64,000 nucleotides of DNA, taken from an uncultured delta proteobacterium (lineage in GTDB: Bacteria > Desulfobacterota > Binatia > Binatales > Binataceae). The number at the start of each line of letters is the position of its first letter. Position 1 is the stretch's first letter. The translations under genes were made by a program, and so were the position numbers. Positions 5,556 through 59,669 of this stretch are shown in pieces. The stretch is from assembly GCA_963808235.1 (NCBI GenBank), contig CAWEEQ010000004.1, forward strand, positions 1,472,001 through 1,536,000, given 5' to 3'. The notes under the pieces are model-generated. The model did not search any database. It saw only the letters and a list, made by a program, of their open reading frames with translations, and had not been told where the DNA came from.

Positions 5556-6514
5556 GCGCACTTGGAAAGAGCGAACGCGGCGTCGCGCTGCTCGCGGTCC
5601 TGCTCGGAATCGCGCTGATGACCCTGGTCGTCGTGGATTTCGCGATGACCTCCGGTCTCGGGTTCGTGTCCGCCGCAAACCAGGCCAATGAACTCCGCGC
5701 CTACTACTTCGCCCGCTCGGGCATCAATATCGGTCTGGCCTTACTGGCCGCGGATGAGCGCGCCAAAACCAATCAGACTTCAACGACCTCCCAACCTGCG
5801 GAAACTCTGGGCGACGCGTGGGCGATGCCGTTTCCGGCCATGCCGCTCGAAGGTGGCAACGTGTCGCTGTCGATCGTGGACGAGGCTCGCAAACTCAACA
5901 TCAACCAGATGGTCGATCAAAATGGAGTTCCCAACCTGGCCGCAATCCAGCGCGTCGAGCGCCTGTTCACCTTCTTGAATGTGGATCCGGCGCTGATTCC
6001 AGGTATCGTGCAGTGGATTTCTCCGGCTAATGCTAGTGTGTCCGGCGGTATCGGCGCGGATTACTACCTCGGCCTGAAACCGCCATACCAACCGCGCGGC
6101 GGCCCGATGCCGACGATTGCGGATTTGCAGATGGTCAGAGGTTTCAACGAGGCGATCTTCAACCGGGTGATCCCGTTCCTGACCGTGATGCCGGAAAACC
6201 AGGTGAACGCCAACACTGCCTCGCCGCAAGTGATAGCATCGCTCGAGCCGGAATTGACGGAGGATCAGCAACTGGTCGAGGAAATCATCATGGCGCGTCA
6301 GGTGCGGCCATTTGCCGCCGTGACCAACGTCGTTAACGACATTCCTGGCGTCGCCGCGTTTGGAACCCGCCTCACCCAGACTTTAACTGTACGCAGCGCA
6401 TACTTTACGATAAGCGGCATGGGCACCTACGCCGGCGCGCGCAAAAGCGTGACCGCGACTTTTCATCGCGAGACCACCGGCGTCGGCACCCTGGGCAATT
6501 GGCATGAAGACTAG
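5549..6514 (+). CDS. gspK: Minor pseudopilin GspK
   Basis: ERG|VALLAVL, IVDEARKLNIN, VNANTAS motifs; GTG start overlapping the gspJ end. Confidence 0.9.
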   Translation: MVSALGKSERGVALLAVLLGIALMTLVVVDFAMTSGLGFVSAANQANELRAYYFARSGINIGLALLAADERAKTNQTSTTSQPAETLGDAWAMPFPAMPLEGGNVSLSIVDEARKLNINQMVDQNGVPNLAAIQRVERLFTFLNVDPALIPGIVQWISPANASVSGGIGADYYLGLKPPYQPRGGPMPTIADLQMVRGFNEAIFNRVIPFLTVMPENQVNANTASPQVIASLEPELTEDQQLVEEIIMARQVRPFAAVTNVVNDIPGVAAFGTRLTQTLTVRSAYFTISGMGTYAGARKSVTATFHRETTGVGTLGNWHED

Positions 6515-6529
6515 GAATCAGGGCGCCTG

Positions 6530-8011
6530 ATGGCTCAACGAATCCTCGCGCTCGAGATCTCCGGCGACCGGGTACGCGCCGCGTCCGCCGATCGCTCGTG
6601 GAATTCGTTCCATCTCGCCGGCGTCTACGAGAAGTTCCGCGCCAACGACGAGACCGACCTGAGCGGTGCGCTCTCCCGCCTGGTCGTCGAGGTTGGCGAA
6701 CCCGATATCGTGATCTCCGCGCTGCCGTCGGAGCGGGTCGTCAAGCGCCTGCTCGAACTGCCGTTCAAGGATGCGCGCCGGCTGCATCAGGTGGTCCCGT
6801 TCGCGCTCGAAGAGCACTTGCCCTTCCCCGTAGATAACGGCGCGGTCGCGTTTTCGCGCTTCGGGCAGGAAAACGGCCATAGCCTGGTGATGGCGGCGAT
6901 GGTCCGCAAGGCCGACTTGCAGGGTCATCTCGATCTGCTCGCCAAGGCGGGACTCGATCCCAAGATCGTCACGCTTGCGCCGCTGGCACTGGCCGCGATG
7001 TTCACTCGATCGCGCAACGGCGCCAAGCCGATGGCGCATCTAGTGGTCGAAGGCGACGAGTCTTCCACTTCGGTGGTGCTGGTCGATTTGACGGGAACTC
7101 CGCGCGCAATCCGCTCGATGCGCGGCGGGCTCATGATGTCCGACGGATCGGCGGTCTCGGCGGACGCAGCCGGCCCGATACTCAACTCGGTGCGCCAGAC
7201 CCTGCTCGCCCAGGGCGGCGAGACCGATGATACCGAAGTGATCGTGGCGGGCCCCGCCGCGGCGTTTGCCAACGTGCGCGGGCTGGTCTCGGATTCGCTC
7301 GCGATGGCGGTGCGGGACGGCGGCACTTTCGATTACTCCGGGTTTTTCGAGGGCACCGTCGCGACCACCGGCAAGTTCGCGTCATGCCTGGCGATGCTGC
7401 TTGGCGAGTTGCCGTCCAAGCCGCTCAACCTGATCAACTTTCGCCAGGGCGAGTTCCTTTTTCGCGGCCGTGTGCGCGGCGACCTGAGTCCGTTTTATCT
7501 TTCCGGCATTCTCGGCGCAGCTTTGTTCGCAGTCATCGCGCTGCACTTCATCCTTGGGGTATCTGCCAATCTCCGCCGGCTGCATCAGGTCGATGCCGAA
7601 ATCGCCGCGGCTGCCGGGCCCGTTCTCGGCGAGACCGATCCTGCCGATGCGCGAAAGCAGTTGAAAAGCGGAATCGCGAAAATGAACGAACGGCTCAAGT
7701 TGATCGGCGGCAACCTGACTCATCACCCGCCGCTCGACACGCTGGTCGCGGTATCGCGCGCGCTACGCAAGGATTTTCCAGTCGAGATGGCCGACGTACA
7801 GATCGATGCGAACGCGCTTCGCATGACCGGCCAGGCGGATTCGTTTGCCACAGTTGATCAAGCCAAGCGAGCGCTCGACAACAGCGGATATTTCGGCGCG
7901 ATCCAGGTTACTCACGCCAAGGCGGGATCCGATCCGAACAAAGTGGATTTCCGCATCGATGCGACGTTCAAGGACGCGGTCCCTACCGCCGCCTCCGACC
8001 ATGAGTTTTGA
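6530..8011 (+). CDS. gspL: GspL/PilM-PilN-like assembly protein
   Basis: Actin-like cytoplasmic domain (LELPF…VPFALEEHLPF), one TM segment, PilN-like periplasmic end. Confidence 0.8.
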   Translation: MAQRILALEISGDRVRAASADRSWNSFHLAGVYEKFRANDETDLSGALSRLVVEVGEPDIVISALPSERVVKRLLELPFKDARRLHQVVPFALEEHLPFPVDNGAVAFSRFGQENGHSLVMAAMVRKADLQGHLDLLAKAGLDPKIVTLAPLALAAMFTRSRNGAKPMAHLVVEGDESSTSVVLVDLTGTPRAIRSMRGGLMMSDGSAVSADAAGPILNSVRQTLLAQGGETDDTEVIVAGPAAAFANVRGLVSDSLAMAVRDGGTFDYSGFFEGTVATTGKFASCLAMLLGELPSKPLNLINFRQGEFLFRGRVRGDLSPFYLSGILGAALFAVIALHFILGVSANLRRLHQVDAEIAAAAGPVLGETDPADARKQLKSGIAKMNERLKLIGGNLTHHPPLDTLVAVSRALRKDFPVEMADVQIDANALRMTGQADSFATVDQAKRALDNSGYFGAIQVTHAKAGSDPNKVDFRIDATFKDAVPTAASDHEF

Positions 8012-54757: not shown

Positions 54758-55618
54758 ATGAATCTCATCATAAAGGGGTTGTCCGCGGTCGTGCTGACCG
54801 TGGCGATGTCCGCGTTGGCTGCGTGTACGCCGATCCAGAATTCGTTCGGAACGGCCGATCCAACCAATCCCGCTTCGCAAATGGGATCCTCCAACGGGTT
54901 TGGATCGAATTCCACGATGCCGACTCCTTCCAGCGCAGGCACCGTGGTCGGCGGCGTTGTCGATTCACCCTCGAGCCAGGGACTCTCCGATTATTTGAAG
55001 CATCACCAATTGCCGTTGGTCGGCGCCCAGGTTGTCACCAGTTCGAGCGGCGGCCGCCAGGTTATCCTGTTCGGCTTTGTCGCGAGCGACTTCGGCAAGA
55101 CCGACGCCGAGCAGAAGGCTCGCCACTACCTGAAAGATCAATCGGTGGTCGTGGACAACCGGATAAAGATCAGCCCCGATCTGGCTGGCGCGGGCGGCAG
55201 CGCGGGATCGACCGTAAACGGTGTACCTTCAGCGAATGCGATGCCGTCGGATGGAACCGATCCGTACGCGGGCTCCGGTTCTATCCAGGACTACCAGAAC
55301 AACCAGCCCCCGGCCTTCGCCTCTCAATCCCAGCAGTACCAGCAGTACGGCAGCACCGGCGGCTCACCCAGCATGCTGACGACGATTATTCCGCTGATCG
55401 GAATGCTTGGCGGCGGATCGATCGGCGGCAGCAGTATGGGCGGAAGTTTCGGCGGATTCGGCGGCGGCGGATTCGGTGGTGGCTCCCCGGGCTTCGGAGG
55501 ATTCGGCGGTTCGCCAGGCTATGGCGGCGGCTACGGTGGCGGAGGTTACGGTGGCTATCCTTCGTATCCACCACCAACATCGCCATACGGTGGCGGCGCG
55601 CCCGCGTTTTCGTTCTGA
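54758..55618 (+). CDS. Lipoprotein with a BON-like domain and a Gly/Tyr/Phe-rich tail
   Basis: Lipobox LAAC; VILFGFV…VVDNRIKI; GGFGG/GGYGG repeats. Confidence 0.7.
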   Translation: MNLIIKGLSAVVLTVAMSALAACTPIQNSFGTADPTNPASQMGSSNGFGSNSTMPTPSSAGTVVGGVVDSPSSQGLSDYLKHHQLPLVGAQVVTSSSGGRQVILFGFVASDFGKTDAEQKARHYLKDQSVVVDNRIKISPDLAGAGGSAGSTVNGVPSANAMPSDGTDPYAGSGSIQDYQNNQPPAFASQSQQYQQYGSTGGSPSMLTTIIPLIGMLGGGSIGGSSMGGSFGGFGGGGFGGGSPGFGGFGGSPGYGGGYGGGGYGGYPSYPPPTSPYGGGAPAFSF

Positions 55619-56504: not shown

Positions 56505-57173
56505 TTACGAATTTGCGGTCTGCGGCGACTGCATTCCCGAAAGCATCCCGATGAGCAGCATGACGGTGACATCCGCCGCGCCGAGAGCCGCGCGATTCCA
56601 CTCTATACCGCCGGCGGGAAGCATCACGCCCTCGCCAGGCTCGAGGATGACGCGAATTCGCGCCGATTGCGCGCCGGACTCCGCGCCGAGAAACACTGCG
56701 GCGTTCTCGTCGCCGAGGTTGATACACGCGAGCGTCGTACCGACGCCCGCGCTGAATCGCGTCGCTCGGCTCGATTGCAGCACAACCGCTCCATCGTTCT
56801 CAGCGACTCCCGTTTGCCCGCCGTCGGAGACGATCACCTCCATCACGGCATCCGAGGGGAGCAACCAGTTTTTGTAATCGAAATAGGCCGCCACCTCACG
56901 CGCATACCCTTCGAATCCGGCGGATATGTTGCTCGGATTATCGTCGCCCGATTCGGCGAGACTCCACCATCGCTTCAACAGATGCCTTGGTATCGCGATC
57001 ACTGACACATCGGTAGGCAACGACGCTCCGTCGTCGGAACATGATGCCGCGAGCTCGCTCGCGTCGGCGGGGCGCCATCCGGTCGGTCCTGGCACCTGCA
57101 CTCTTTCAGCCAGAGTCAGCCGGCTCTGATATCGAGCCGCGTGGCGTATTCGACAAGCCGGCGCAACCTTCAT
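56505..57173 (-). CDS. Hypothetical protein co-oriented with the rSAM; possible cupin/DSBH fold
   Basis: Starts 20 nt after the rSAM stop; CINLGDE…RVILEPGEGVMLP pattern. Confidence 0.55.
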   Translation of the reverse strand: MKVAPACRIRHAARYQSRLTLAERVQVPGPTGWRPADASELAASCSDDGASLPTDVSVIAIPRHLLKRWWSLAESGDDNPSNISAGFEGYAREVAAYFDYKNWLLPSDAVMEVIVSDGGQTGVAENDGAVVLQSSRATRFSAGVGTTLACINLGDENAAVFLGAESGAQSARIRVILEPGEGVMLPAGGIEWNRAALGAADVTVMLLIGMLSGMQSPQTANS

Positions 57174-57192: not shown

Positions 57193-58357
57193 TCAGGTGA
57201 CGACCGCTGCGTCGCCGCTTGGATGCCGTAGTCGTGCGACAATCACGTCGACCAGCACTTTGCGATTGAGGCGGCAGAACATGGTCTCGGTGGAATCGAA
57301 CGAGCCATTCTCGAAGTACTTATTCACCGGCGCGCCGCCGCCGCACAAGCCGTAGTACTCACATGTGTCGCGGCACTTGCTCAGCCCGCGTGCAATATCA
57401 GTACTCATATGCCGGAACTTGTCGCCATTGATCGCTGTGGCGAGTGTATCCGTCTTCACGTTGCCTATAGCGAAGTCGCCGTAGTGACTACTCTTGAGTC
57501 CAAGCAGCTCGGGCGAGTAGGTAGTGAAGTTGCCTTCGCAGTCGATACTGAGTATCGCACCAGGCGCGTTTTCCTGCGTCAGAGGAACATCGTCTGAGCC
57601 GGCGCCAAGAATCAGCGGAACCATCGAATCGAACTCGCGCACGCTCATGGCCAGGTCGTCGCGCGCGACCAGATCGAAGAATCTTCCGATGAAGCGTCCG
57701 AATCTATTTTCGATTCCCGCCGCGCCGAGTGTCGACGAGGCGTGCGGTCCTTCGATCTCTTCGATATTGAACGCGACCTCCCGGAACGTCGTTCTCCAGG
57801 TAGAAGTCATAGAGTTCGTCCGCGTAATCGAGCGACTCGCCGGTAAGCACGGAGATTACGTGGAAGGGCACCTTGTTGCTCTGCAGTTTTCGGATCCCCG
57901 CCATCACGCGATGATGAGTCGCGCCGCCCTTGCGGGTCTTTCGATAGCGATCGTGAAGAAACGCCGGCCCGTCAACGCTGACTCCGACGTTGACGCCATG
58001 CGCGTTGAAAAAATCGCACCATGCGTCGTCGATCAGAACGCCGTTGGTCTGAAACGAGTGACGCACCTGCGCGCCGTCCGGATTGTGATTGGCGATAATC
58101 CCGATCGCGGTTTCGTAGTAGCCGACCGGCAGGACCATCGGTTCTCCCGCGTGCCAGACCACGGTGAAGCCCTGCTCGACGATTCCGCTTTCGAAGACGA
58201 ATTGAAAAACGCGCTTCAGCGTCGCTTCCGACATTCGGCGCGTAGAGTCGCGATCGGGCAGGTAGCAGTACGAGCAGTCGAGATTACAGAACGGAGTCGG
58301 CTGCAGAACTAGTAACTCGAGTGGCCCAGCGATTCGCCATCTATTGACCGCGGCCAT
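57193..58357 (-). CDS. grrM: GrrM/OscB-type cyclophane-forming radical SAM/SPASM peptide maturase, frameshift near 57785
   Basis: LVLQPTPFCNLDCSYCYLP, WHAGEP, QTNG, SVDGP, FNIEE, YSPEL, CRDTCEYYGLCGGGAPVNKYFENG…TETMFC. Confidence 0.9.
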
Positions 58358-58426: not shown

Positions 58427-58753
58427 TTACCAATTGCGCCAGTTATGCCAGTTGTGCCAGTTCGGCCAGCCCCATCCGCGCCATCCACCGTTGCGCCAAT
58501 TGCGCCACCATGCGAGCTGCACGGTTGAGTCGCCTTGCTTGATCAGGTTGGCGTTGGCGTCTTGAGCCTGAGGGCGCACCTTCTCGACGCGTTGCTTGAG
58601 ACTGTCCGTGGGATTGCTGTCCGCGACGTTGGCGCCCGCAGGGAGCGCACTCAGGATCGTAGTCGCGAGCACGATCGTGCTGGCGCTAGTGCCGATGATC
58701 GCGCGGAGACGTTCTTTAAGTTTTTGTCGATTCGCGGGCTGGTCGGATTTCAC
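58427..58753 (-). CDS. GrrA/OscA-type triceptide RiPP precursor (108 aa)
   Basis: RBS AAGGAGGA then GTG; core WWRNWRNGGWRGWGWPNWHNWHNWRNW*; directly upstream of the rSAM. Confidence 0.9.
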   Translation of the reverse strand: MKSDQPANRQKLKERLRAIIGTSASTIVLATTILSALPAGANVADSNPTDSLKQRVEKVRPQAQDANANLIKQGDSTVQLAWWRNWRNGGWRGWGWPNWHNWHNWRNW

Positions 58754-59024: not shown

Positions 59025-59669
59025 ATGCGATTTCGGCCCACTCTTTCAGCGGTAATCCTCGTCTCAAGTCTGCTCGGCGCCAGTCCCTTCCTGATGGCTG
59101 CCGATGAGCATCCTCCGGAGCCGGCAAATCCGGAATACGCGCAATGGTCTCACTTCAAACCCGGCAGCTACGTCACCCTCGAGCGAAAAGTACTCGAACA
59201 CCGCGAGAGTAATCCGGGTGTCGTCGAGGCGATGGCGCATCCGCCGGGCGCCGCCGTCATGCGCATCAGCAGCAAGTTGGTCGATCTCGACAAGGACAAA
59301 GCCGTTCTCGAGGAGACCAGGATCGATCTCGGCGACGGCAGCGAAACCGAGATGCCTCCCGACAAGGTGACGCTCTTCGCCAGTGGCTCGGTCAGCGATG
59401 CGACCGATTCACTGATGGAGGCGCCGGCGAAGCAGGAAGACGTCAAGGCGACCGAGGGCGACGAAGAAGTGTCCGTACACGGAAACAAGATCAAGGCGCA
59501 CTGGGTCGAGACCTCGGTCAAGACCGGCTCCGAAGTATCCACCTCGAAGGACTGGCTGTCGGATGACATTCCCGGCGGCCTGATCAAGGAAGAGGTCAAG
59601 AAAACTATCGGTGGGAAGCTGGTGCTGGAATCGGTGACCAAGGTGATCGATTACAAATCCGCTTCCTGA
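59025..59669 (+). CDS. Secreted beta-rich hypothetical protein
   Basis: GGAGG RBS, signal peptide, W-x-x-FKPG, WLSDDIPGGLIK. Confidence 0.75.
   Translation: MRFRPTLSAVILVSSLLGASPFLMAADEHPPEPANPEYAQWSHFKPGSYVTLERKVLEHRESNPGVVEAMAHPPGAAVMRISSKLVDLDKDKAVLEETRIDLGDGSETEMPPDKVTLFASGSVSDATDSLMEAPAKQEDVKATEGDEEVSVHGNKIKAHWVETSVKTGSEVSTSKDWLSDDIPGGLIKEEVKKTIGGKLVLESVTKVIDYKSAS

Follow-up and report, generated by a model that had tools for sequence, protein, structure and literature searches.

The closest known counterpart of the protein considered here is MicC, an alpha-KG-dependent non-heme iron oxygenase from the minviopeptin (mic) triceptide cluster that was reported in 2026 (PMC12912966, accessible portion). 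According to that portion of the report, the MicC gene lies beside the gene for a cyclophane-forming radical SAM enzyme (rSAM), and MicC cuts its peptide at Gly to leave a C-terminal amide. The same text notes that Actinomycetota and Bacteroidota have MicC homologues adjacent to rSAM enzymes, and names KdoO as a structural neighbor of MicC. It also describes an H160-D162-H253 triad, and reports that the H160A, D162A, H253A, R188A and K266A variants are all inactive (PMC12912966, accessible portion).

A second point of reference is the GrrA/GrrM (OscA/OscB) triceptide system. The accessible part of a review describes OscB as linking Trp-C7 or Phe-C4 to the C-beta of an Asn or Asp residue at position i+2. 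Our search of the literature, with subscription-only papers (the original triceptide report included) outside its scope, returned no description of a third gene in GrrM/OscB clusters or of the protein family that it encodes. Here we describe such a gene, the family to which it belongs, and its relationship to MicC.

The third gene and its operon

The window, which is the whole stretch of DNA that was analyzed (64,000 nucleotides), contains a precursor gene and a gene for a GrrM/OscB-type rSAM, followed by a third gene (Table 1). An earlier note on this DNA had claimed an open reading frame carrying the motif CINLGDE at this place, and both are present. The note had also put the gene soon after the rSAM stop codon, which is correct, with a spacer of 20 nt, which is not: the TGA of the rSAM gene occupies 57195-57193 and the ATG of the third gene 57173-57171, leaving 19 nt. 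At several other loci there is no spacer at all, the start of the third gene overlapping the rSAM stop or adjoining it directly.

Table 1. Positions of the operon genes, of selected residues in the third-gene protein, and of precursors at related loci
Feature	Position	Strand	Remarks
Third gene (P0001)	56505..57173	minus	222 aa + stop; predicted MicC-related DSBH protein without the Fe/alpha-KG site
CINLGDE	56706..56726	minus	residues 150-156 of the third-gene protein
RVILEPGEGVMLP	56616..56654	minus	residues 174-186 of the third-gene protein
W192 of the third-gene protein	56598..56600	minus	column of the MicC distal iron ligand H253
GrrM/OscB-type cyclophane-forming radical SAM/SPASM gene	57193..58357	minus	TIGR04261 match, split by an extra base
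Precursor gene	58427..58753	minus	GTG start 5 nt after GAAGGAGGAA; 108 aa; core WWRNWRNGGWRGWGWPNWHNWHNWRNW
Divergent 214-aa protein with signal-peptide-like N-terminus	59025..59669	plus	conserved beside the precursor in distant loci
Precursors of long-form loci with RRxFLK-like motifs	L024 4090-4572; L029 276-647; L038 2347-2763; L043 1142-1741		

Two other forms of the third gene were considered. A longer, TTG-started ORF (to 57242) and the 171-residue form of the protein present in databases are both less likely than the ATG-started form listed in Table 1, because homologues begin with MK(x)xPxxRIxHAxRYQ at the same point. The protein is acidic, with a mass of ∼22 kDa, and is predicted to be cytoplasmic; its sequence has neither a signal peptide nor a membrane segment. 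An ORF for an lptB-like ABC ATPase lies downstream of the third gene, also on the minus strand. A scan of the locus for promoters and terminators gave scores at background level, and the predicted fold of the RNA spacer between precursor and rSAM genes was no better than that of shuffled sequences (z 0.59). Elsewhere in the window, an ORF at 54758-55618 (plus strand) begins like a lipoprotein (…LAAC) and carries a long tail rich in Gly, Tyr and Phe, GGFGGGSPGFGGFGGSPGYGGGYGGGGYGGYP.

The rSAM gene of the window matches TIGR04261 in two halves, with 242 bits for model positions 1-178 and 217 bits for positions 177-361. Each half falls below the 310-bit cut-off because of a frameshift; intact GrrM orthologs score 471-492 bits against the same model. 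Relative to four orthologs, the window carries one extra base at ∼57785, which splits the gene into two ORFs. The contig of run X3, which is ∼97% identical to the window over 261 bases, is without the extra base, and the contigs of runs X1 and X2 that are identical to the window do not span 57785. Either an error of assembly or a lesion specific to the strain could account for the frameshift, and given its presence the operon may be non-functional in this assembly.

Association with one subclade of GrrM-type enzymes

The earlier note had named a lack of linkage between homologues and pairs of rSAM and precursor genes as grounds for refuting its reading; this objection fails, since such linkage is nearly universal. 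At 23 of 24 genome loci the third gene directly follows a GrrM/OscB-type rSAM gene; tblastn detects a precursor at 22 of these loci, and inspection by eye adds one more, at L024. The latter locus, in a MAG labelled Alcaligenaceae, has an intact GrrM of 382 residues and a third gene of 180 residues. The exception among the genome loci is L023, where the third gene is reduced to its final 55 residues (6001-6165) and no rSAM or precursor gene is present. The upstream gene for a secreted protein and lptB persist at L023, and the locus appears to have decayed there.

A scan of metagenomes with an alignment of long-form relatives (A3) gave 22 loci, 17 of which have over 100 nt of sequence ahead of the matched region; an rSAM gene is present upstream in 16 of these 17, L030 being the exception, and two of the metagenome loci, L038 and L039, appear to be duplicates of each other. 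In a sample of 151 Binataceae genomes, all 15 other genomes that carry the third gene have a GrrM gene scoring above the curated cut-off within ∼90 nt, although these genomes are close kin that probably overlap with the genome loci, such that the two counts are not independent. The position beside GrrM is kept from Binataceae to the Alcaligenaceae-labelled MAG and soil metagenome contigs, at which distance the third-gene proteins share 25-35% identity.

GrrM-family genes also occur without the third gene. We found two such copies in genome G251 (L048 and L049) and one, a second copy, in genome G348 (L050, on contig C1), and these rSAMs are more divergent, with scores of 389-406 bits. The near-identical G251 copies are followed by an ORF of 579-689 residues, which in the L048 copy has no Pfam match, and by a canonical PF13640 oxygenase of 268 residues; no precursor was identified there. 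Since GrrM loci exist without it, the third gene is tied to one GrrM subclade and is not required by all. Its product is a dedicated companion of one GrrM/OscB-type subclade and of precursors with W/F-x-N repeats.

Precursor peptides and a possible fourth component

The motifs WRN, WPN and WHN are present in the precursor of the window and, by ORF scan, in those of 21 other genome loci. Precursors at L024, L029, L038 and L043 carry FRN, FKN and FAN repeats, and that of L024 is of the classic Gly-rich type. Both the W-x-N and the F-x-N repeats fit the cross-link at i+2 reported for OscB in the accessible part of the review cited above. The window precursor matched no NCBIfam precursor (GrrA) model. 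Its core contains Gly-Gly.

All precursors have an N-terminus that, read by eye, resembles a signal peptide. If the precursor is exported by the general machinery, the absence of a peptidase or transporter gene from the locus would be explained. Precursors beside long-form members of the family contain NRRQVL, DRRQFLKG, DRRKFLKG, SRRGML or ARRKLK in this N-terminal region, whereas Binatus precursors have R-N, R-Q, R-K or R-S in place of R-R and hence a single Arg. The RRxFLK-like motifs resemble the twin-arginine consensus.

The divergently oriented gene for a 214-residue protein has homologues in 28 of 50 loci (L001-L022, L023, L024, L038/L039, L043 and L046), and the versions from the window and L024 are 27% identical (E 9e-9). 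The window version of this protein matched no Pfam model and no PDB sequence, and may belong to the system as a fourth component. At L024, a gene convergent to the third gene (6424-7329, minus strand) encodes a secreted caspase-like peptidase (PF00656, E 3e-7), for which no counterpart was seen in the window.

Family size, conservation and selection

Homologues of the window protein number 109 at E<=1e-3, of which 107 fall below 1e-30. Counted as representative clusters matched, the family comprises at least 116 clusters at 50% identity. Used as a single query, the window sequence reaches long-form members at E values of 2e-10 to 3e-7, and 15 clusters at E<=1e-10. The Binatus forms are without a helical insert of ∼35 residues that long-form members keep. 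An hhalign comparison of two alignments (A6 and A3) gave a probability of 100%, but three sequences are common to both, and the alignments are therefore not independent. Family records are labelled Binataceae, Gemmataceae and Alcaligenaceae, and come from soil lineages.

The window protein matches no Pfam model (E<=1) or NCBIfam model, and none of 14 long-form members matches NCBIfam. Among 74 family members scanned against Pfam, 12 show a weak match to Lcl_C (best E 0.0013). A single member, the fused protein P0175, gives a match to 2OG-FeII_Oxy_3 (PF13640), located in an extra C-terminal domain. The third gene is single-copy in the window's own genome, which is the only one of 201 genomes in a phylum-level sample to carry it; in a sample of Binataceae it occurs in 16 of 151 genomes, again counting that of the window. 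In the MAG assemblies that contain L018 and L019, the rSAM gene of each locus and the third gene of L018 are broken into different frames, a defect of the same kind as that in the window.

Across 45 pairs of orthologs, the third gene has a median dN/dS of 0.37, compared with 0.12 for the adjoining rSAM gene. The third gene is under purifying selection and is more than a chance ORF. It evolves faster than its neighbor, with 49-69% identity between orthologs whose rSAMs are 80-88% identical; for the L021 and L022 orthologs, the values are 30% for the third gene and 60-65% for the rSAM.

Such rapid change could be taken to mean that the protein has no part in maturation and is instead an immunity factor, a regulator, or the decaying relic of a former tailoring oxygenase. 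The short remnant at L023 and the GrrM loci that do without the gene fit the same explanation. However, the place beside GrrM is retained across the lineages named above, the start codon overlaps the rSAM stop or lies directly against it at several loci, the dN/dS value is well removed from ∼1, and 13 of the 32 further genomes sampled from the same genus carry the gene intact. Immunity exerted outside the cytoplasm is further at odds with a protein that has no signal peptide or membrane segment, whereas the product of the locus appears to be exported. We therefore judge it improbable that the third gene has no function in maturation.

Predicted fold and kinship with MicC

The link to MicC emerges when the diversity of the family is used. 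A profile built from 74 diverse members with the window protein first (A2) matches MicC (PDB 9VKM, 9vkm_A) with an E value of 4.9e-12 and 48.6 bits over profile positions 45-244. In contrast, a profile dominated by Binatus sequences (A1) found no meaningful match among PDB sequences and did not reach MicC. Thus, the connection between the window protein and MicC is transitive, running through the long-form relatives.

[quoted passage not shown] An AlphaFold model of the window protein (pLDDT 79.6, pTM 0.80) finds its best VIA-align match in ALKBH7 (Z 9.6, rmsd 3.9 Å, 155 residues aligned). Among the best 50 matches to this model, 46 are oxygenases of the 2OG/Fe(II) type, three are different cupins and one is an uncharacterized protein. 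A second fold comparison of the same model agrees with the 2OG-oxygenase match. The model of a long-form relative, P0134, was predicted with higher confidence (pLDDT 94.6, vs 79.6) and matches OkaE/FtmOx1 at Z 10.2; against KdoO it gives Z 8.6-8.7 over 191-196 residues, and KdoO is also its top Foldseek row.

Because Z values of 7-8 are common background in this fold comparison, the margin of values between 9.6 and 10.2 is modest when taken alone, but it agrees with the sequence match to MicC. Foldseek returned weak rows only for both models (best E 4e-4 and 1.5e-3). 9VKM appears in none of the fold-search results, and the copy of the PDB that was searched may not include it. Taken with the profile match, the modeling bears out the fold that had been proposed, and the third-gene protein is predicted to be a DSBH protein of the Fe(II)/2-oxoglutarate oxygenase type and a distant relative of MicC.

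Predicted loss of the iron and 2-oxoglutarate sites

The only histidines of the window protein are H11 and H64, both outside its beta-helix core (residues 110-211). There is no His after residue 64, which bears out the remark of the earlier note on the absent H-x-D...H triad, and the triad is missing across the family as well. In a HMMER alignment of MicC with the window protein, H253 corresponds to W192, R188 to A158 and K266 to M205. The HxD motif of MicC (H-I-D) sits in an insertion absent from the family; the mapping is a single profile-to-sequence alignment, and the exact equivalent of HxD in the window protein is uncertain owing to this insertion.

The same picture is obtained with the 74 family members. 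The column of H253 is occupied by V, L, Y, F or W, with H in five members; that of R188 by T (34), A (17) or S (11); and that of K266 by L, W, V, M or Q. No H-x-D/E is present in the 45 residues before NLG in 73 of the 74, the one exception being HCE. All five residues essential in MicC are therefore missing or replaced, both in the window protein and across the family, and these include the basic residues for the C5 carboxylate of 2-oxoglutarate (R188 and K266). As judged from these alignments, the branch is predicted to have lost both the 2-His-1-Asp iron site and the two basic residues that hold 2-oxoglutarate, in which case no canonical oxygenase activity would be possible for the third-gene protein.

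These replacements bear directly on whether the protein might be a canonical Fe(II)/2-oxoglutarate oxygenase, carrying out beta-hydroxylation or a MicC-like cut at Gly that yields a C-terminal amide. Homology to MicC, the shared fold and the Gly-Gly in the precursor core would suit such an enzyme. With every MicC-essential residue gone, no His in the beta-helix core and no match of the window protein to a Pfam 2OG-oxygenase model, this assignment is highly improbable and, on the sequence, close to refuted.

Other polar residues are conserved in a pattern that resembles an active site: N152, D155/E156, R174, E181, and H64 in LPxHL. Within CINLGDE, N is kept in 73 of 74 members and L and G in 70 each, and N-L-G recurs in MicC (NLGRED). 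In RVILEPGEGVMLP, which aligns to RIKPFECYIAP of MicC, residues R174, P179, G180, E181, G182 and P186 are conserved. The features common to the family and MicC are N-L-G, the second E, R174 and two prolines, so some of the conserved positions may serve the structure.

This pattern could reflect an active tailoring enzyme whose chemistry is non-canonical. Such an enzyme would act on the cyclophane peptide through D155, E156, E181, R174 and H64, either independently of metal or with a different metal, and candidate reactions are epimerization, Asn deamidation and hydrolysis. N152, D155/E156, R174 and E181 are near-invariant over at least 74 divergent members, and H64 is conserved in both sub-alignments. 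Cupin-fold enzymes without a 2-His-1-carboxylate site, namely RmlC, sugar isomerases and the epimerase SnoN, are among the structural neighbors, and the authors of the MicC study raise the possible functional diversification of rSAM-adjacent MicC homologues (PMC12912966, accessible portion). Against such an enzyme, no known catalytic motif is matched, and N-L-G and the E of EPGEG are found also in MicC, whose catalytic residues sit elsewhere, so that they may be structural. The constraint on the gene is looser than that on the rSAM (dN/dS 0.37 vs 0.12), and the fusions described below suggest that the triad-less domain contributes no oxidative chemistry. On balance, we regard an enzyme of this kind as unlikely, albeit a serious contender.

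A possible role as a peptide-binding partner

Four clusters (P0175, P0287, P0307 and P0310, three of which stand among the 120 matches listed) have the triad-less domain fused to a prolyl-hydroxylase-like domain (PF13640) in which H-R-D...H is intact. This arrangement suggests that the contribution of the triad-less domain is not oxidative, with substrate recognition as the simplest possibility. No longer fused forms (476-2000 residues) were found, which is weak evidence. The family is acidic, with a pI below 7 in 70 of 74 members (median 5.2), compared with a pI of 12 for the repeat core of the precursor. Acidic pI values are common in cytoplasmic proteins, and the contrast in charge is therefore weak evidence.

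From the lost catalytic residues, the fusions to PF13640, the contrast in charge and an evolution faster than that of the rSAM, we infer, as the most likely of the readings, that the third-gene protein may be a pseudo-oxygenase serving as a non-catalytic accessory that binds the peptide, a role whose chances we consider about even. The earlier note had likewise weighed a non-catalytic binder against an unusual tailoring enzyme. The protein would have kept the peptide-binding cleft of its oxygenase ancestor, and might use it to bind either the repeat region of the precursor, which is basic and aromatic, or the cross-linked product. In doing so it could hold the precursor or present it to GrrM. 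Alternatively, it might keep the precursor soluble and cytoplasmic until modification is complete, after which export would follow.

A more specific version of this last idea, offered by analogy, is a holding chaperone that grips the GrrA-type precursor with its signal peptide and allows release for export only after GrrM has installed the rings. It would amount to the proofreading of a ribosomal peptide, comparable to the guarding of Tat substrates by their chaperones, and the fused relatives would deliver the peptide to their hydroxylase domain. Both the holding step and the proofreading are, in our estimation, rather doubtful.

Whichever role applies, the family forms a large sister branch of MicC (at least 116 clusters at 50% identity) that is unannotated in the actively mined field of rSAM cyclophanes. 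If the protein is a binder, it would be a RiPP accessory protein of a new type, with an oxygenase as its ancestor, and could explain failed two-gene reconstitution of GrrM-type systems. If instead it is an enzyme, it would perform chemistry not yet known for the DSBH fold. Under either reading, the third gene belongs in expression constructs for these clusters.

Comparison with known systems

Chaperones of the TorD/DmsD/NapD type bind signal peptides during maturation in the Tat pathway. Our comparison with them was prompted by the RRxFLK-like motifs in precursors beside long-form members, and the likeness lies in the proposed logic only, that of a cytoplasmic protein holding an export substrate until it has been modified. 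The fold of the Tat maturation chaperones is unrelated to that of the third-gene protein, and Binatus precursors are without R-R.

One subunit of the Tlx enzyme is catalytically inactive. The TlxI/TlxJ heterodimer (PDB 7VBQ/7VBR) thus resembles the proposed arrangement in idea, with a DSBH protein acting as partner and not as catalyst, and both TlxIJ and TlxI rank high among the structural matches (Z 9.0-9.8). In contrast to the system described here, Tlx acts on meroterpenoids and not on peptides, and there is no sequence relation beyond the fold.

Among triceptide systems, GrrA/GrrM (OscA/OscB; TIGR04261 / IPR026357) shares with the window locus the type of rSAM and the aromatic-x-Asn repeats at the C-terminus of the precursor. 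The Binatus core differs in being Trp-rich and compact, and not Gly-rich.

The closest likeness in the protein itself is to MicC, as far as the accessible portion of its description extends. The two have in common the DSBH fold with KdoO as a structural neighbor, the NLG...E and R-x-x-x-x-P-x-E motifs and, in the long forms, the helical insert. Both are encoded beside an rSAM that forms three-residue cyclophanes and a precursor with aromatic-x-x motifs. They part in the active site, where MicC has its essential H160-D162-H253 triad together with R188 and K266 and the third-gene family has none of these residues. They also differ in their partners, which are a PasB-like rSAM and an ADP-ribosyltransferase in Bacteroidota and Actinomycetota for MicC, and GrrM/OscB-type rSAMs for the third-gene family. 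The third gene thus looks like a triad-less, GrrM-linked branch of the MicC-like family, in which the fold and the partnership in the genome are retained and the active site is lost.
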